Shown: positions 7,841-49,041 of the stretch, one piece after another | Layout of the letters: every line of letters begins with the position of its first letter | How positions within the stretch are numbered: position 1 is the first letter of the stretch | Origin: Bdellovibrionales bacterium | Lineage (GTDB): Bacteria > Bdellovibrionota > Bdellovibrionia > Bdellovibrionales > UBA1609 | NCBI GenBank assembly: GCA_965200025.1 | Contig: OZ241325.1 | Coordinates: forward strand, 1,306,743 to 1,370,742 | Length of the DNA: 64,000 bases | Direction: 5' to 3' | Notes under the pieces: model-generated | Database searches by the model: none | What the model saw: the letters and a program-made list of their open reading frames with translations, nothing else | Told to the model about the DNA's origin: nothing | Made by a program: the position numbers and the translations under genes

Positions 7841-8086
7841 TCAGTCTATTTCAAAAGGAACAGCTGATATTTGTGAGGGAAAACCAAAACCATCATAAGC
7901 CACTGTGCTGGAAGGTATTAAAGACAAAGCTCTGGCTTTTTTGACAGCCTTTTTCAGCTGCCTTTGCTGAGAGTGCATCAGACCTGTTAAACGGGCCGGG
8001 TGAATTTTACCTCCCTCTGTAATAAACTGATACAAGGTCAAAGGGGATTTGTAATCCAACTTGACCGGCCTGCGGGCAGCCTTCAT
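7841..8086 (-). CDS. rpsR: 30S ribosomal protein S18
   Basis: The motif KLDYKSPLTLYQFITEGGKIHPARLTGLMHSQQRQLKKAVKKARALSLIP matches the S18 core. An alternative upstream start lies at 8104. The usual rpsF/ssb/rplI partners are not adjacent. Confidence 0.8.
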   Translation of the reverse strand: MKAARRPVKLDYKSPLTLYQFITEGGKIHPARLTGLMHSQQRQLKKAVKKARALSLIPSSTVAYDGFGFPSQISAVPFEID

Positions 8087-22886: not shown

Positions 22887-22963
22887 CGGAGAGTGGCGCA
22901 GCCCGGTAGCGCATCTGCTTTGGGAGCAGAGGGTCGCAGGTTCAAATCCTGTCTCTCCGACCA
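22887..22963 (+). tRNA. tRNA-Pro (anticodon TGG)
   Basis: Hand fold: acceptor CGGAGAG/CTCTCCG, anticodon arm TCTGC-TTTGGGA-GCAGA, T arm GCAGG-TTCAAAT-CCTGT, and an encoded CCA. Confidence 0.9.
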
Positions 22964-23457
22964 TTTTATTACACAAGCCCATTTTTTTGCACCCCTTACC
23001 CCCCAAGTGAAGTGAAAACAAGAGGAATCGGACCTGAATTTTGACTTTATTCAATTAAGAAGATAATTAAATGAGGATTTAAACTTGGAATCAAGCCAGT
23101 TTCACCACAGTTCTTGAAGTACAAGATACTGCAGGTTAAAATAGGTTTAAGTAAACAAATAATTCAAGGTCAATACCCGTCTTCAAATCTAATGTATGAT
23201 GATTTATGGAAAATAGCTAATGACAACACTCCATTTCAAGATATATTGCATGATGTCAAAATCTTGGAACATGGATTTTCCTGAAAATTATACACTTGAT
23301 TTTATCAAAATAACTTGTCATTATATATCCAGTTAAAGGTTATAGGCCTTTAGTACAGACTTCCACTAACAAAAGTCTTAATTTATAAAGAAACTTATAA
23401 AAGCGTAAAGCTTTAAAAACATTTCAGTTTTTATGCTTTTAAATTAGATTAAAATCA

Positions 23458-25914
23458 ATGAAGTTTAAAGATTTCGCAACTGGAAAACTTGTTAAACTTT
23501 CTCCAGAGGAGAAAGTAAGACAAGAATATGAAAAAATTTTAGTAAATGATTATAGTTATAAAAAATCAGAACTGGATATTGAAGTTTCTATTCCAAGAGG
23601 AACAGGGTATTTCCCAGATTCTGCTGACATTGTCGTGTTTAATTCATCAATTGAAAAAGATCCAGCTGCTAATATATTAGGAATTGTAGAGACTAAACGT
23701 CCTGAAAAAAAAGATGGGTTAGCTCAACTTAAATCATACATGACAGCAACTTCTGCTGTTTGGGGAGTATGGACAAATGGCAATGATATTGCTTATCTTT
23801 GCAAACCTCCCGGAACAAACTCTATTTCAGAAAATTATCTAAATAATATCCCTGCAAGAAATCAATCTCTTCAAGACGTAGGCAGAATAAAAAAACAAGA
23901 TTTAAAACCTTTTGGAAGAGAAGAGCTTAAAACAGCTTTTCGCAGGATTCTTCTCACCCTTTATACAAATACAAATATCAGTCGTAGGGAAAAATTAGGT
24001 GGAGAAATGATAAAGTTGATTTTCTCAAAACTTGAAGACGAAAAAACATACTTAAATCGTGTTCCTGATTTTCGCTCAGAAGCAGGAGAAAAACCAGAAA
24101 CAGTAAAAAAACGAATTGATAAACTTTTTGACAGGGTAAAAAAAGAACTAAAAAATGATGGTGTTTTTCATTTTCATGAAAAAATTACTCTGGAAGCAAG
24201 ATCAGTTGCCTGGGTAGTGGGACAGTTAGAACGTGGAAGTTTATTAAAGACTGATACAGATGTGGTTGGAGATGCTTTTGAAATTTTTGCAGAATCTCCT
24301 TTAAAAGGGGAAAAAGGTGAATTTTTTACACCTCGTGGGGTTATTAAACTTGCAGTAAAGATGACTAATCCAAAACCTGAAGAGTCTATTTGTGATCCTG
24401 CTTGTGGATCAGGTGGATTTCTGATTTATTCCATGAAGCATATATGGAATCTAATGGAACATGATCCTAAATGGAAAGGATCACCTAAATTAAATGAACA
24501 TAAGCAAAGAATAGCCTCACAATCCATATTCGGAATAGATAAAGAGTCTGATTTGGTGAAAATTGCAAAAGCTTATATGGCTATTTCAGGAGATGGAAGA
24601 AGTAATATGGTTTATGAAAATACTTTACATGAAATAAGTAAGTTTTCACCTCTTGCTAAAGAAAAGTTTACAGAAGACAATAAATTCAGAAAATTTGATG
24701 TGATTTTAACTAACCCACCTTTTGGAACTAAAACCAAGGTTGTAAAATCTGATTCCAAAAATTTTCAACTTGGATATCAATGGACAGAAACAATAAAAGG
24801 GAAGTTTAACAAAACCAACAAAGTATGTGAAAGAGAACCACATATATTATTTATTGAACGCTGCCTTGATATGCTTAAAAAAAACGGACGCCTTGCAATC
24901 GTTCTTCCAGAAACTGTGTTTCACGCCCCAAAAGCAGGTTACATCAGGAATTTCATAAAAAATCAAACTAGTATAGAAGCTGTAATTGATTTGCCACATA
25001 ATACCTTTCGACCTCATTGTAACGCAAAAACATGTCTCTTTATTTTACAAAAAGGAAAAAAACAAAATAATAAAGTGATTATGGCTGCTCCCAAAGAAAT
25101 GGGACACAACCATCAAGGAAAGGTTATTTTTAGAAGAGGCACTGAAGAAATATGGGATGATCTAAAAGTGGTAACAAAAGAGTTAGATAATCCTAACCTA
25201 AAAAATAATCAATTCACTTTTTTGGTACCGTGGTCTCAAATCAAAGAGGCTGGAAATCTAGTACCTATTTATTATCAAAATATTTTCAAACCACCTAAAA
25301 TGTTGGAAGGAAGACTTGGCATTAAATTGAGTGATCTTTGTAATCAAAGGGTTTTAGATGCATGGGATGGTCATGGTTCTCCTTCCTCCATATCAAAAGG
25401 ACAAGGAAAAATTCCTTATATCCGTGTGAGTGACATTGTTAATTGGGAATTATACAGAAATCCAGTTACAGGAGTTCCAAAGGAGGTTTATGAAAAAATG
25501 ATTCAAAATAAGAAGAAACCTAAACCAAAAGACATTCTTTTTGTCAGAAGAGGGAGTTATCGTATAGGAACAGTTGCCATGGTATCTCCTCAGGATACAG
25601 AAGTGCTTCTAACAAGAGAGTTACTTACTTTTAGAGTTTTGAATGCAAAAAATCCCTATGGGATTAACCCTTTTTATCTTCTTGGTTTATTATCTTCAGA
25701 ATTTGTACAAAATCAAATACCTTCAAAAGTTTTTATTGATACAACTTTACCAAATATCGGGGATAGATGGAAAGACATTATTCTTCCTGTCCACAAAAAT
25801 AAAAAAGAAATTGAGAATTATACAAATAGAGTTAAGTCTATTATCGATAATAAATGGAAAGCACAAAAAGAAATTCAAAAAATGATAAATGATATAGAAA
25901 ACATTGTAACATAA
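23458..25914 (+). CDS. single-polypeptide restriction-modification enzyme (type IIG-like): PD-(D/E)xK nuclease, gamma-class N6-adenine methyltransferase and an HsdS-like specificity domain
   Basis: The N-terminus matches the HsdR-N-type nuclease domain (EEKVRQEY...SADIVVF...GIVETK; ExK at 23686-23697). The AdoMet motif ICDPACGSGGFLI starts at 24391. The catalytic NPPFG lies at 24712-24726. The C-terminal 300 aa resemble a type I S-subunit TRD (IPYIRVSDI...FVRRGSYRIGTVAMV...FYLLGLLSS). Confidence 0.8.
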   Translation: MKFKDFATGKLVKLSPEEKVRQEYEKILVNDYSYKKSELDIEVSIPRGTGYFPDSADIVVFNSSIEKDPAANILGIVETKRPEKKDGLAQLKSYMTATSAVWGVWTNGNDIAYLCKPPGTNSISENYLNNIPARNQSLQDVGRIKKQDLKPFGREELKTAFRRILLTLYTNTNISRREKLGGEMIKLIFSKLEDEKTYLNRVPDFRSEAGEKPETVKKRIDKLFDRVKKELKNDGVFHFHEKITLEARSVAWVVGQLERGSLLKTDTDVVGDAFEIFAESPLKGEKGEFFTPRGVIKLAVKMTNPKPEESICDPACGSGGFLIYSMKHIWNLMEHDPKWKGSPKLNEHKQRIASQSIFGIDKESDLVKIAKAYMAISGDGRSNMVYENTLHEISKFSPLAKEKFTEDNKFRKFDVILTNPPFGTKTKVVKSDSKNFQLGYQWTETIKGKFNKTNKVCEREPHILFIERCLDMLKKNGRLAIVLPETVFHAPKAGYIRNFIKNQTSIEAVIDLPHNTFRPHCNAKTCLFILQKGKKQNNKVIMAAPKEMGHNHQGKVIFRRGTEEIWDDLKVVTKELDNPNLKNNQFTFLVPWSQIKEAGNLVPIYYQNIFKPPKMLEGRLGIKLSDLCNQRVLDAWDGHGSPSSISKGQGKIPYIRVSDIVNWELYRNPVTGVPKEVYEKMIQNKKKPKPKDILFVRRGSYRIGTVAMVSPQDTEVLLTRELLTFRVLNAKNPYGINPFYLLGLLSSEFVQNQIPSKVFIDTTLPNIGDRWKDIILPVHKNKKEIENYTNRVKSIIDNKWKAQKEIQKMINDIENIVT

Positions 25915-26053
25915 ATGGAAAGTTTAATATATAGTTCTCTAAATTTTTACAGTGGCATTTCTTTTTAAGAGTCAAATCTTTTAAACAAACTGTAACAGAA
26001 GGGCATAAACTTTCTTTCCAGGAGGATTTTTTTAAAAAATAAGGAATTAAATA

Positions 26054-27847
26054 ATGAGAATAATTAAAATTATTATAAATAACTTTAGAGGAGTTAAAAA
26101 AAGTGAAATTTATTTTCCAAATCATGGAGTTCTTGTTGGTGATAGCAATGTAGGAAAATCAACAATTTTTGAAGCCATTGATCTGGTTTTGGGTCCAGAG
26201 AGAATGAGAAAAAAACCAGTTATTGATGAACATGATTTTTTTGCTGGTGATTATTTAAGTTTAGAAAAGAAGTTAATCAAAATTAATATTGAAGTAACAG
26301 CAGTGAATTTAAATAAAGAACAAGAAACCTATTTTAAAGATCATATTGAATGGTGGGATATTAACCAAGGTCAAATTTTAGACAGCCCACCCCCTGAAGC
26401 TACAGATGCAAACACTGTATTATCAGCCATCAGGTTTTCTTTCGAAGGAAAATATGATGAGGAAGAGGACGATTTTATCGGAAACACATATTTTCAACAT
26501 CCATTAAGAGATGATGGAGGAAAAAATCATCTTAGTACAAAAGATAAAAGAATGTGTGGATTTCTTTTTTTAAGAACTCTTAGAACAGGATCAAGAGCAT
26601 TAAGCTTAGAAAGAGGTTCATTGTTAGATATTATTTTAAATATTAAAGAAATTAAAATTAATATGTGGGAAGAGATTTTAGAAAAATTAAGATCTGTTTC
26701 TATTGCTGACAAATCTGAACTGGGAGTGACCAATGTATTATCTGATGTAAAAAAAGAACTAAGCTCATTGGTTACATCTGAATGGGGTACAAATCCTCAA
26801 ATAAAAACTTCTGATCTAACAAGAGAAGGGTTACGAAAAGTACTGAATGTGTTTATGGAAACGGGAGTCAAAAATATAAAAGGCCACAAACATATTGTGC
26901 CATTTAAAAAACAAGGAACAGGAACAATCAACATGCTGGTTCTTTCAATGCTATCCATAATTGCAAATTTAAAACAAAATGTAATTTTTGCAATGGAGGA
27001 ACCTGAAACAGCAATACCCCCATATACTCAAAAAAGAATCATCAATCATATTAGAAAAAATTCAACTCAAGCACTTTTTACTTCTCATAGTCCCTATGTA
27101 TTGGAAGAATTTGATCCTTCAGAGATTATTGTTCTCACTAATAGATTAGGTTTTATGGAATCAAAAAAAGTTACATTCCCAGCACATGTTAAAAGAAAAA
27201 ATTATAAACAGGAATTTAGAAAAAAATATTGCGAAGCGTTGCTGGCAAAAAAAATTTTAATAGTTGAAGGAAAAACAGAATATGATGCAATTCCGGTCGT
27301 TGCCCGTCGATTGCATGAAATCAACTCTCAAAAATTCTCCAGTTTGGAGGCTCTTGGAATAAGCATCATTAATGCTGAAACAGATTCTCAAATTGCATAT
27401 ATTGGGAAACATTTAAAAAACTTGGGAAAAATAACTTTAGCGATATATGACAAACAAGATGACAATCAGAATCTTCCAATAAAAAAAAATATAGATCACC
27501 CATTTGAATCTCCTGAAAAAGGATTTGAAAGCCTTATTATTAATAATGTTCCCTATCAAAAATTAAAGCAGTTTTTTATTGATATTTTTTCAGAAGGAAG
27601 CTGGCCCAGCCACTTATCCCACATAACTCCTAACAACTCTAGTAATGAAGCTGACATTAAAAAAGCTCTGAGTAAATACTTTCAGTGGTCAAAAGGTTTT
27701 GAAACTATAGCTAATTTATTGGAAACATGTAGTGAAAATGAAATTCCTGAATTTATAAAAGATACGCTTCTCTCAATAAAACATAAAGTGCAAAAAAAAT
27801 CTTTATCAGACCATCGAAGCTCTATAGAAAGTAATAATGAAAATTAA
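26054..27847 (+). CDS. gajA: OLD-family ATP-dependent nuclease (ABC-type ATPase + TOPRIM), GajA-like
   Basis: Walker A GDSNVGKST (26138-26164), Walker B-like VIFAMEEPE, then SHSPYV. The C-terminal TOPRIM-like region is ILIVEGKTEYDAIP...INAETDS...AIYDKQDD. The gene is adjacent to and overlaps a UvrD-like gene. Confidence 0.8.
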   Translation: MRIIKIIINNFRGVKKSEIYFPNHGVLVGDSNVGKSTIFEAIDLVLGPERMRKKPVIDEHDFFAGDYLSLEKKLIKINIEVTAVNLNKEQETYFKDHIEWWDINQGQILDSPPPEATDANTVLSAIRFSFEGKYDEEEDDFIGNTYFQHPLRDDGGKNHLSTKDKRMCGFLFLRTLRTGSRALSLERGSLLDIILNIKEIKINMWEEILEKLRSVSIADKSELGVTNVLSDVKKELSSLVTSEWGTNPQIKTSDLTREGLRKVLNVFMETGVKNIKGHKHIVPFKKQGTGTINMLVLSMLSIIANLKQNVIFAMEEPETAIPPYTQKRIINHIRKNSTQALFTSHSPYVLEEFDPSEIIVLTNRLGFMESKKVTFPAHVKRKNYKQEFRKKYCEALLAKKILIVEGKTEYDAIPVVARRLHEINSQKFSSLEALGISIINAETDSQIAYIGKHLKNLGKITLAIYDKQDDNQNLPIKKNIDHPFESPEKGFESLIINNVPYQKLKQFFIDIFSEGSWPSHLSHITPNNSSNEADIKKALSKYFQWSKGFETIANLLETCSENEIPEFIKDTLLSIKHKVQKKSLSDHRSSIESNNEN

Positions 27848-29555
27848 AATATGTGAAAAAAGAAACCGACTACTTTCATCTTCCAATAATTTAATTATTT
27901 TAGGTGGGCCTGGTTCGGGAAAAACCACAATTGCTTTGATAAAAGCAAAAGAAGAAGTAAAATCACTATCAAGTAGTCAAAAAATTTTATTTTTAAGTTT
28001 TGCTAGAGCTACAGTCGCTAAAGTTATCGAAAGCTCATCTCAATATATAGATAAAGTGTCCTTGAAATCCATTGAAATCAATACCTACCATGGATTCTTT
28101 TGGAATATTTTAAGAAGTCATGGTTATCTAATTAACAACAACTATCCTTTCAAAATTTTGAATGCAGCTGACGAGGCTGTGAAGATGGCAAATGTAGATC
28201 CAAAAGACAAGAGTATTACTCGTAAAAAAATATTTGAACAAGAAGGTATTGTAGCATTTAATTTGTTTTCTTCCCTGGTCAATAGGTTATTTTCAGGATC
28301 AAAAAAATTAAAATATATAATCTCAAGATCATATCCCATTATCATTGTTGATGAGTTCCAGGATACCAATATTGAGGAATGGGAAACAGTGAAGCTTTTA
28401 AGTGAAACTTCCAGAATTATTGCTCTCGCTGACCCTAATCAAAGAATCTATGATTTTAGAGGAGCTGATCCTGCTCGAATAGGTCAATTTATTGAGCAAT
28501 TAAAACCAGAAACATTCAATTTTGAAAATGAGAATAACAGGAGTTCAACCAAAGATATAACCACATTTGGAAATGACCTTCTTACAGGAGAAAACCAAAG
28601 AAAACAATATCGTGATGTCAAAATCTTTTTTTACAAATATTACGGAAATAACCGTCATGAAATCTATCATCCACTTAAAACGAAAGTAATGGAAGGAATT
28701 AAGAGATTAAATACCGGTATAGACTGGTCAATTGCAATATTACTCCCTACAAAATCTCAAATGTTACAAGCATCAAATTATTTTTCTTCTTCAAAAGACA
28801 AGTTACCTATTATTGAACATGATGTTGCCATTGACTCTGAAGGACCTGAACTTGCTGGAAATTTATTTGCTAAATTATTGGAAAATTTTACCTCAATAGA
28901 AGAAATAAAAAAGCAGATTATTATTCATCTCATAGACCACTTGAAAGGCAGAAAAGGAGATAACCCCACACAACAGGATTTAAAACTTTCAAGAGCATTA
29001 CAAAATTTGTTAAGTAAAAATAAAATTACTGGAACAAGACGGTTAAAATTAATAAAAGAAATAGAATTAATTGCCAATAAAAGATTTAATCTGAGATTCA
29101 CAGGTAATCCTTTGGATGATTGGCGAAGTAATGTAGATTTATTTAATAACTATAAAAATGAAGATGCTTTAAAAAATATCAAAGAAGATGCAAAGTATAT
29201 AAGATTATTACATATAGGTTCTCATCTCAGAGAATCTTTAAATCGCTCCTGGAAAGATTATGGTTGTTACAATAATGCCAGTAAAAATTTTCGATCAGTA
29301 ATTCAGAAAGAAAATTTATCCACAAATATTAAAAAATCTTCCAAAATTAATATAATGACTATACATAAATCCAAAGGAAAACAATTTAATGAAGTTTTTC
29401 TTTTTGAAGGACTTTATACAGGTCGATTTGTACGACAACCAAAAGAACAAAAAAGTGTTGACCAATCCAGATTAATCTTAAGAGTCGGTGCCACAAGAGC
29501 AATGGATCGGGTCACCATATTATCTCCTGATAGTAAAAAGTGTGAAATACTATAA
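27837..29555 (+). CDS. gajB: UvrD/PcrA/Rep-family SF1 helicase, GajB-like
   Basis: Motif I GGPGSGKTT (27903-27929), motif II IIIVDEFQDTN (28350-28364), TIHKSKGKQF and VGATRAMDRV. It overlaps the upstream gene by 11 nt. Confidence 0.8.
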   Translation: MKIKICEKRNRLLSSSNNLIILGGPGSGKTTIALIKAKEEVKSLSSSQKILFLSFARATVAKVIESSSQYIDKVSLKSIEINTYHGFFWNILRSHGYLINNNYPFKILNAADEAVKMANVDPKDKSITRKKIFEQEGIVAFNLFSSLVNRLFSGSKKLKYIISRSYPIIIVDEFQDTNIEEWETVKLLSETSRIIALADPNQRIYDFRGADPARIGQFIEQLKPETFNFENENNRSSTKDITTFGNDLLTGENQRKQYRDVKIFFYKYYGNNRHEIYHPLKTKVMEGIKRLNTGIDWSIAILLPTKSQMLQASNYFSSSKDKLPIIEHDVAIDSEGPELAGNLFAKLLENFTSIEEIKKQIIIHLIDHLKGRKGDNPTQQDLKLSRALQNLLSKNKITGTRRLKLIKEIELIANKRFNLRFTGNPLDDWRSNVDLFNNYKNEDALKNIKEDAKYIRLLHIGSHLRESLNRSWKDYGCYNNASKNFRSVIQKENLSTNIKKSSKINIMTIHKSKGKQFNEVFLFEGLYTGRFVRQPKEQKSVDQSRLILRVGATRAMDRVTILSPDSKKCEIL

Positions 29556-29652
29556 CCGACGTTTAATCTTTTTTAATTTTTCCACTGGTCTTTGGTTTTG
29601 AAGATATAGTCTTGCCATACCACCATATAGTCAACTTGAACCAACAAAACTT

Positions 29653-48957: not shown

Positions 48958-49041
48958 TGGTGGAGGGAGTAGGATTCGAACCTACGTAGGCAAAGCCAAC
49001 GGTTTACAGCCCGCCCCCTTTAACCACTCGGGCATCCCTCC
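48958..49041 (-). tRNA. tRNA-Tyr (anticodon GTA), class II with long variable arm; anticodon arm non-canonical
   Basis: Acceptor GGAGGGA/TCCCTCC, GTA in the loop context CTGTAAA, variable arm GGC-TTT-GCC, T arm GTAGG-TTCGAAT-CCTAC, and an encoded CCA. The 3' strand of the anticodon stem appears one C short (CCGT instead of CCCGT). Confidence 0.8.

Follow-up and report, generated by a model that had tools for sequence, protein, structure and literature searches.

What do two overlapping genes in the genome of a Bdellovibrionales bacterium encode, and is the system to which they belong intact? The stretch of DNA analysed here (hereafter the window; 64,000 nucleotides, assembly GCA_965200025.1, contig OZ241325.1, positions 1,306,743 to 1,370,742 of the forward strand) holds a gene pair that an earlier note, made from the sequence alone, had taken for an intact module of the Gabija anti-phage type. 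The literature defines Gabija, or class 2 OLD, as a gene for an OLD nuclease together with a gene for a superfamily 1 (SF1) helicase resembling UvrD, PcrA or Rep (PMC10568477, PMC6755086), and the mechanistic background has been described in several studies (PMC10781630, PMC10681800, PMC6755086, PMC12407980, PMC10568477). Our analysis indicates that the window pair is very probably a functional Gabija system, made up of a class 2 OLD nuclease (GajA) and a UvrD-like partner (GajB), that was acquired horizontally within a small defence islet.

Identity of the gene pair

The first gene, gajA (26054..27847, + strand), encodes a class 2 OLD-family nuclease of 597 aa with an ABC-type ATPase domain and a TOPRIM domain, and the second, gajB (27837..29555, + strand), encodes an SF1A UvrD-like ATPase/helicase of 572 aa. 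Read directly from the sequence, the two open reading frames (ORFs) are co-oriented and contain no internal stops. The 3' end of gajA reads ...AGT AAT AAT GAA AAT TAA and finishes at 27847, and the ATG of gajB lies at 27837; the overlap of 11 nt (27837..27847, + strand) is ATGAAAATTAA. Both ORFs, the overlap and every motif quoted in the earlier note were found where that note had placed them. An OLD nuclease gene followed on the same strand by a UvrD-like helicase gene is the arrangement of class 2 OLD systems, as the note had recognised.

Searches with curated profiles gave full-length matches for both proteins. GajA matched the PADLOC GajA profile PDLC00086 at 820 bits (3e-247; residues 1-590 of the protein, positions 1-586 of 600 in the profile), and GajB matched the PADLOC GajB profile PDLC00104 at 657 bits (6e-198; residues 3-572, positions 2-572 of 574). 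A further GajB profile, PDLC00141 (length 572), also matched window GajB end to end, at 508 bits. The next-best PADLOC systems other than Gabija scored 79 bits (AriA), 73 bits (Old) and 82 bits (DRT RTasHel). Pfam placed AAA_15 (1-349, 1e-22) and OLD-like_TOPRIM (396-466, 3e-9) in GajA, and UvrD-helicase (2e-28), AAA_19 and UvrD_C (8e-9) in GajB. Resemblance at these levels greatly exceeds chance. The NCBIfam models for housekeeping helicases scored only 73-95 bits against cut-offs above 900 (uvrD 95 bits, cut-off 1144; pcrA 90, 911; rep 73, 951), and GajB is therefore not a housekeeping repair helicase. The searches with GajA/GajB, OLD-TOPRIM/AAA_15 and UvrD profiles that had been proposed as a check thus returned Gabija, and not repair helicases, as the best match.

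We also built AF2 models of GajA and GajB on family alignments and searched them against the PDB with Foldseek. The top matches for the GajA model were the GajA chains of Bacillus cereus together with TsOLD, the OLD protein of T. scotoductus, at E ~1e-16. Identity between the window proteins and other members of their PADLOC Gabija subfamily is 50-72%; the locus belongs to the clade of profiles PDLC00086 and PDLC00104/PDLC00141 and is in that sense already catalogued.

Pairing and distribution

To place the pair in context, we collected 81 related loci, from one ENA contig and 80 species-representative genomes, which span Bdellovibrionota, Pseudomonadota, Bacillota, Bacteroidota, Planctomycetota, Verrucomicrobiota, Nitrospirota and others. 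A GajB homologue lay directly downstream of GajA in 78 out of 81 loci; two of the three exceptions sat at a contig end, and the third (L072) had a truncated GajA match. The junction could be measured at 76 loci: the two genes overlap in 23 and lie 0-20 nt apart in 46 (together 69/76). An overlap of 11 nt recurs in L001 and L002, which are the two closest relatives. No conserved third gene was found around these pairs, the commonest flanking gene family occurring at no more than 6 of the 78 loci. On plasmid p3 of Robbsia andropogonis (NZ_CP139167.1; 2501-6079 of locus L084), a single coding sequence (CDS) of 1192 aa joins GajA-like and GajB-like parts. In translation, the C-terminus of the TOPRIM domain continues in frame into the Walker A of GajB (LVIGGPGSG), and this copy carries a canonical Y-D-L-D motif; barring a sequencing artefact, the CDS is a natural GajA-GajB fusion.

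These data bear on the plainest alternative, that a generic ABC ATPase and an SF1 helicase happen to lie side by side and have no functional pairing. Both folds are indeed very common, and weak Pfam matches to SMC_N, AAA_23, Viral_helicase1 and others also turned up for the pair. That reading is effectively refuted by the pairing across phyla, the tight or overlapping junctions, the in-frame fusion and the full-length matches to Gabija profiles. Full-length matches to curated profiles and conserved pairing that involves no conserved third gene identify the module as genuine Gabija (class 2 OLD), and the pairing, the tight junctions, the absence of a recurrent flanking family and the Robbsia fusion together mark gajAB as an autonomous two-gene unit. 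The claim that the module is intact was thus borne out by the profile matches, the structural matches and the 78/81 pairing.

The subfamily is very widespread. Among 8000 candidates scored, 4499 clusters at 90% identity reached E <=1e-5, and at E <=1e-30 the window branch comprised 297 representatives of 50%-identity clusters. The nearest homologues (59-72% identity) came from metagenome-assembled genomes (MAGs) of Bdellovibrionales/Bacteriovoracaceae, with a local GC content of 31-36%. The window branch also occurs in Pseudomonas aeruginosa (P0226 and the megaplasmid matches H2 and H3). The window GajA subfamily was present on 29 plasmids, ten of them conjugative, and had no match in the phage genome collection. 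In short, gajAB travels as a pair across many phyla and on plasmids, its operon is tight and its catalytic residues are conserved.

One group of loci stood out. At L023-L028, gajAB and 4-16 kb of flanking DNA were 97-99.9% identical across hosts of different genera, namely Eoetvoesiella, Pigmentiphaga, Ectopseudomonas oleovorans, Burkholderia aenigmatica, Pseudomonas pseudonitroreducens and a Gemmatimonas MAG. DNA identity of this order between genera points to the recent spread of a mobile element bearing the window Gabija subfamily.

GajA: ATPase domain and a variant TOPRIM motif

The N-terminal domain of GajA retains the elements of an ABC-type ATPase. The Walker A motif, G29-x4-G34-K35-S36-T37 (GDSNVGKST, aa 29-37; 26138..26164, + strand), aligned to the N-terminus of B. 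cereus GajA, and its K35 and S36 were invariant in 120 out of 120 homologues. The Walker B motif (IFAMEEPE, aa 311-318) and the H-loop (TSH345SP, within SHSPYV, aa 344-349) lie at 26984..27100 on the + strand, in a region that aligned to residues 254-383 of B. cereus GajA. E315, E316 and H345 were each conserved in all 120 homologues, and the Glu-Glu pair of the Walker B is the same as that in LIEEPE of the prototype.

The TOPRIM core spans aa 396-485 (27239..27508, + strand) and includes E405, E409, G435, E442-T-D444 and D466-K-Q468. The secondary structure of the AF2 model placed beta1 at 400-405, beta2 at 436-441, beta3 at 460-465 and beta4 at 482-485. On these strands, the three strings quoted earlier as TOPRIM-like, ILIVEGKTEYDAIP (aa 401-414), INAETDS (439-445) and AIYDKQDD (463-470), correspond to the end of beta1, where the catalytic Glu lies, to the loop following beta2, and to the place of DxD past beta3, respectively.

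Aligning this domain to B. cereus GajA required several routes. A phmmer search of the C-terminal 208 aa of GajA against the PDB returned nothing even at E = 10, and a search of the GajA family profile against the PDB lost the alignment directly past the TOPRIM Glu and gave no significant match to 6NK8. We therefore used fragments of prototype-type GajA, recovered via a fragment of B. cereus GajA, as the alignment for hhalign against the window family. E405, at the end of beta1, corresponds to E379 of the B. cereus protein, with phmmer and profile alignment in agreement, and E409, the Glu four residues further on, to E383. G435 matched G403 in the profile-profile comparison. The loop after beta2 reads E442-T443-D444 in the window protein, at the place of G409 in the prototype, and D466-K467-Q468 falls on D432-N433-D434 (hhalign with ungapped extension). 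The first Asp of the DxD motif is thus kept (D466) and the second is replaced by Gln (Q468), giving D-x-Q and not D-x-D. The earlier reading of this region as TOPRIM-like stood, with the D-x-Q qualification.

We then examined how far these residues are conserved. In the 120 close homologues, E405, E409, D466, Q468, E492 and K547 were each invariant, and the invariance of D466 and Q468 argues that the Gln is no lesion of the window copy. For a wider sample, we turned to more distant GajA-like clusters and took 38 of their full-length representatives (P0260-P0394; 21-50% identity). E405 was present in 38 out of 38, G435, D466 and E492 in 37 each, and K547 in 36. By contrast, position 468 held D or E in five representatives and Q in nine, with L, T, P, I and other residues in the remainder. 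Schiltz et al. (2019) described the second Asp of DxD and the Gly after beta2 as absolutely conserved in their class 2 alignment (PMC6755086). Our counts from the 38 representatives, some of which may have no helicase neighbour, appear to conflict with that description of DxD. The second Asp would then be a signature of the sub-branch of the prototype and not of the whole family.

Structural work on BpOLD offers a rationale. There, D457 contacts metal A through water only, and the single D457A mutant was tolerated and retained activity (PMC6755086). By analogy, a Gln could fill the role of D457 in hydrogen-bonding the waters of metal A. In view of its invariance, the scarcity of an acidic residue in the diverse set (5/38) and the behaviour of D457 in BpOLD, we read Q468 as a conservative, selected variant. 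Neither D-x-Q nor the absent Gly disqualifies the protein as a Gabija nuclease, since an acidic residue is present in 5 out of 38, the curated GajA profile shows the same pattern and D457A is tolerated.

Downstream of the core, a helical region (27527..27694, + strand) contains E492 and K547, which are candidate equivalents of BpOLD E508, a ligand of metal B, and K562. This proposal draws on their conservation and on the spacing from E to K (55 residues, compared with 54; PMC6755086), and not on direct alignment. E405, E409, D466, E492 and K547 together form the predicted working two-metal site of the window subfamily.

Two further acidic residues were observed in this domain. D411 (nt 27284-27286) was invariant in 120 out of 120 homologues and position 444 (D444, nt 27383-27385) was acidic in 119 out of 120; at the positions aligned to them the prototype carries hydrophobic residues or Gly. 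They may be extra active-site acids tied to the change from Asp to Gln. We considered whether D444 systematically compensates for the second Asp of DxD and dropped this idea, as the 38 representatives showed no clean anticorrelation and many had neither residue. A literature search for 'DxQ' with Toprim found no papers.

The same features raise the question of whether the window pair is a catalytically altered or nuclease-dead relative of Gabija, acting through depletion of ATP or other nucleotides, through DNA binding, or in a repair role unrelated to defence. The Gln at the second DxD position and the missing canonical Gly after beta2 are what such a relative might show, as is a GajB model that resembles bona fide UvrD more than B. 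cereus GajB. However, the Gln is found in all 120 homologues amid invariant E405, E409, D411, D466, E492 and K547, which marks a selected site and not decay; the BpOLD D457A mutant shows that loss of the equivalent Asp can be borne; and the absence of the second acidic residue from 33 out of 38 diverse representatives means that it is not required family-wide. The locus, moreover, sits in a defence islet and not in a repair operon, and its helicase falls more than 800 bits under the UvrD, PcrA and Rep equivalog cut-offs. We consider this explanation highly improbable.

GajB: a UvrD-like helicase with a long 2B-like subdomain

GajB contains SF1A motifs I, Ia, II (DExQD), III, IV, V and VI, all of which aligned to UvrD. 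We assessed their conservation in 118 full-length homologues, which measure 547-590 aa. In motif I (Walker A; GGPGSGK29TT, aa 23-31; 27903..27929, + strand), G26, G28 and K29 were present in 118 out of 118, as were the five residues of the motif II DEFQD box (D172-D176, in IIIVDEFQDTN, aa 168-178; 28338..28370, + strand), which aligns to DEFQD of UvrD. Motifs V (TIH510KSKGKQF, aa 508-517) and VI (VGATR554A, in VGATRAMDRV, aa 550-559) lie at 29358..29513 on the + strand and aligned to UvrD residues 553-618. Their H510, K513, K515, T553 and R554 were each invariant, as was R235, and the other motif residues (D199, Q202, Y205 and G209; R235-S236; G514) were invariant or nearly so. The AF2 model of GajB had a pLDDT of 86.6 and gave a Foldseek TMq of 0.55-0.64 to UvrD, Rep and PcrA and of 0.38 to B. 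cereus GajB.

The prototype lengths given in the earlier note, about 580 and about 490 aa, agree with the PDB chains (GajA 578 aa, GajB 494 aa), and the window helicase is indeed the longer one, as the note had remarked. The N-terminal halves of the two GajB proteins are colinear (8-244 aligned to 7-240, by the coordinate ranges of the alignment), and the 1B subdomain measures 82-84 aa in all homologues, compared with 83 aa for its equivalent in the prototype, Nacc (PMC10681800). The difference resides in an all-helical 2B-like accessory subdomain (aa 331-497; 28827..29327, + strand), for which AF2 predicted eight helices between residues 335 and 494. The corresponding Cacc subdomain of B. cereus GajB comprises residues 314-416, or 103 aa (PMC10681800). 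GajB is therefore longer than the Bacillus prototype on account of a 2B-like subdomain of about 167 aa as against 103.

This block was 163-169 aa long in all 118 homologues and contained the invariant residues G423, D428, W429, W472 and Y478. The extra sequence does lie between the DEFQD and TIHKSKG blocks, as had been noted; the suggestion that it is a lineage-specific insertion fails on its presence throughout the homologues. Of the PADLOC GajB profiles, the two best-matching have 574 and 572 positions and most of the rest 540-635. By these sequence comparisons, the 494-aa Bacillus GajB is the short outlier, and a large subfamily has the long 2B-like subdomain as a fixed trait. The stretch between motifs IV and V measures 248 aa in GajB and 250 aa in E. 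coli UvrD, and alignment to UvrD requires 1B to be offset by about 42 residues. No GIG motif was apparent in GajB, which stops about where the hairpin of the UvrD separation pin would be.

A different mode of action for this D-x-Q, long-2B branch is worth weighing here. In view of its UvrD-sized 2B-like subdomain and a model closer to UvrD, GajB might act as a genuine translocase or helicase and supply GajA with DNA, and the TOPRIM site, rearranged by the Gln at the second Asp and by the subfamily-specific invariant D411 and mostly acidic D444, might differ in metal use or cleavage mode. The cleavage change could be, for example, processive degradation as opposed to site-specific nicking. B. 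cereus GajB shows no unwinding activity. We regard such a departure as possible yet unlikely.

Genomic setting

The gene pair lies in a low-GC island of about 6.7 kb (22964..29652) that carries three defence genes and is bounded on the left by tRNA-Pro(TGG) (22887..22963, + strand; ARAGORN, with an Rfam tRNA score of 66 bits) and on the right by the rpoC stop (29653). Its GC content was 0.30-0.33, compared with 0.43-0.45 in the flanks, and GC at third codon positions (GC3) was 19.6-21.1% for its three genes, compared with 51% for rpoB and rpoC. No integrase was found in the island and no att-type direct repeats were found, including any repeat of the tRNA-Pro 3' end elsewhere in the window. 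The Bdellovibrionales/Bacteriovoracaceae MAG relatives are a plausible donor pool.

Immediately after tRNA-Pro comes an AT-rich spacer of 494 nt (22964-23457), in which we found no ORF of at least 60 aa, no integrase remnant and no Rfam match; it may represent the island's decayed edge. In L002 (Bdellovibrionales MAG OZ241914.1), the closest genome relative, a tRNA-Leu(TAA) occupies 7885-7973 and gajA starts at 8001, 28 nt later. The two acquisitions are both tRNA-adjacent but at different tRNAs (tRNA-Pro and tRNA-Leu), which argues that they were independent.

The third gene of the island (23458..25914, + strand) encodes an 818-aa restriction-modification (RM)-like enzyme in a single chain and is not part of Gabija. 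Pfam identified an N-terminal HSDR_N_2 domain of the PD-(D/E)xK type (1e-16; SADIVVF...IVETK) and an N6_Mtase domain (1.5e-42; NPPF at aa 419), and the C-terminal ~250 aa had no Pfam match. The best solved relative was RM.BsaXI (8w0p, 89 bits), and the best NCBIfam match was MAD2 of the MADS system, at 339 bits. The protein is probably a single-chain restriction-modification enzyme like those of type IIG or IIB. With the neighbour most simply taken as a single-chain RM enzyme beside Gabija, the island is a two-system defence islet.

One could instead regard the RM-like gene and gajAB as a single three-gene, methylation-linked defence, either MADS-like or coupled to RM, with methylation labelling self DNA for the OLD nuclease. 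In favour, all three lie in the same orientation within one island, only 139 nt separate the first from gajA, their GC3 values are nearly identical, and weak MADS resemblances extend to GajA, which matched MAD3 at 44 bits. Yet these scores lie far under the cut-offs (720 for MAD2 and 420 for MAD3), and the island holds no other MAD genes; we accordingly rejected MADS membership. Across the 81 gajAB loci, moreover, a methyltransferase was absent or represented merely by unrelated weak matches kilobases away, no flanking gene family appeared in more than 6 of 78, and the closest relative (71% identity) carries a DUF2779 gene upstream instead. The enzyme also has its own nuclease-like N-terminal domain and, being like RM.BsaXI, would be self-sufficient as an RM enzyme. 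A three-gene system is thus most improbable.

An Rfam scan of the window between 20 and 50 kb returned tRNAs only. Outside the island, ARAGORN reported a 'tRNA-???' of 84 nt, its 2-nt anticodon malformed, at 48958-49041 on the - strand, adjoining tRNA-Thr (Rfam tRNA 49.8 bits). From its length and its position in a tRNA-tuf-secE-nusG-rpl-rpoBC cluster, it is probably a tRNA with a long variable arm, such as tRNA-Tyr.

Mechanism and remaining doubts

By analogy with studied systems, GajA and GajB would assemble into a hetero-oligomer, which in B. cereus is a 4:4 complex (PMC10781630, PMC10822852); the conserved tight operon and the in-frame Robbsia fusion lend this step indirect support. Nucleotide bound by the ABC ATPase domain of GajA would restrain the TOPRIM nuclease, the GajB ATPase would sense DNA ends or termini and, upon infection, the complex would nick or cleave invading linear DNA. 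Two triggers could be envisaged: a fall in nucleoside triphosphate (NTP) pools, as in the B. cereus model (Cheng et al., summarised in PMC10568477), or linear DNA ends lacking RecBCD, as in the current in vivo model from P. aeruginosa PA14 (PMC12407980). Neither experimental model comes from the window branch, PA14 GajB having a DESQ box where DEFQD is found here, and the extrapolation is therefore by family only.

Several points weigh against the identification of the pair as a functional Gabija system. The canonical TOPRIM signature is incomplete, with no Gly after beta2 and with D-x-Q in place of D-x-D. Similarity to B. cereus Gabija, the sole structurally characterised one, was remote by phmmer (28 bits for GajA and 40 bits for GajB). 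The GajA model was moderately confident (pLDDT 75), and its dimerisation insert had disordered stretches. A scan of the island for promoters and terminators gave the same counts as shuffled controls. In the literature searched, we found no published test of the window Gabija subfamily or locus. The two published activation models also disagree (PMC12407980, and Cheng et al. as cited there), and for the window system complex formation, nuclease specificity and trigger would all be extrapolations from those models. Set against the evidence above, these points leave a functional, horizontally acquired Gabija system as the reading that we favour.

Significance

The locus itself is a routine call of the kind that PADLOC or DefenseFinder would make automatically; what it documents, for a Bdellovibrionota-like genome, is an islet of Gabija and restriction-modification inserted with tRNA-Pro on one side and rpoC on the other. 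The pair is an ordinary, intact copy of a known system, from a widespread but little-studied branch. The Gabija literature leans almost wholly on the prototype from B. cereus VD045 and to some extent on PA14. The window branch, which is large and spans phyla, departs from that prototype in two traits regarded in papers as characteristic, the DxD motif and the 2B subdomain, which is reduced in the prototype. Because the TOPRIM signature and the size of the 2B subdomain differ, the biochemistry of the prototype may not transfer to this branch. Thus, it may not hold generally that GajB is not a helicase, or that class 2 OLDs conserve DxD absolutely, and it would be sensible to take a member of the window branch as a second model system for Gabija.

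Comparison with known systems

Among neighbouring families, class 1 OLD (P2 Old-like), which has a stand-alone OLD gene, PARIS AriA/AriB, with ATPase and TOPRIM split, and Septu PtuA, an ATPase that has an HNH partner, were ruled out by the helicase partner and by the scores of Old (73 bits) and AriA (79 bits) against 820 bits for GajA.

Gabija from B. cereus VD045 (GajA 578 aa, GajB 494 aa; PDB 8SM3, 8J4T, 8JQB and 8TJY) has the same two-gene architecture and order as the window pair. The two GajA proteins share the Walker A GK[ST], the Glu-Glu Walker B, the H-loop and the TOPRIM residues E405 (E379), E409 (E383) and D466 (D432), and the two GajB proteins have every SF1A motif in common, as well as a compact 1B subdomain of equal size (83 aa). 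Unlike B. cereus Gabija, the window system has Gln for D434, lacks the Gly at G409 and has a GajB that is 78 aa longer. Comparison with BpOLD and XccOLD (PDB 6NK8; PMC6755086) suggests likely equivalents for E405 (E400), E409 (E404), D466 (D455), E492 (E508) and K547 (K562), E400 and D455 being ligands of metal A; BpOLD differs in having D457 where the window has Q468 and, probably, T506 where it has G490.

The Gabija system of P. aeruginosa PA14, encoded on PAPI-1, is likewise a two-gene GajA-GajB system, in which both genes are required and the ATPase, TOPRIM and DExx residues are needed for defence (PMC12407980). Its GajB box reads DESQ, whereas DEFQD is invariant in the window subfamily, which places PA14 on a different Gabija branch. 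E. coli UvrD, Rep and PcrA, SF1A helicases of repair and replication, were the best structural matches for GajB, with motifs I-VI of the same type. By contrast with UvrD, GajB has a 1B subdomain about 42 aa shorter, lacks the UvrD C-terminal extension and is paired with an OLD nuclease at 78 out of 81 loci.

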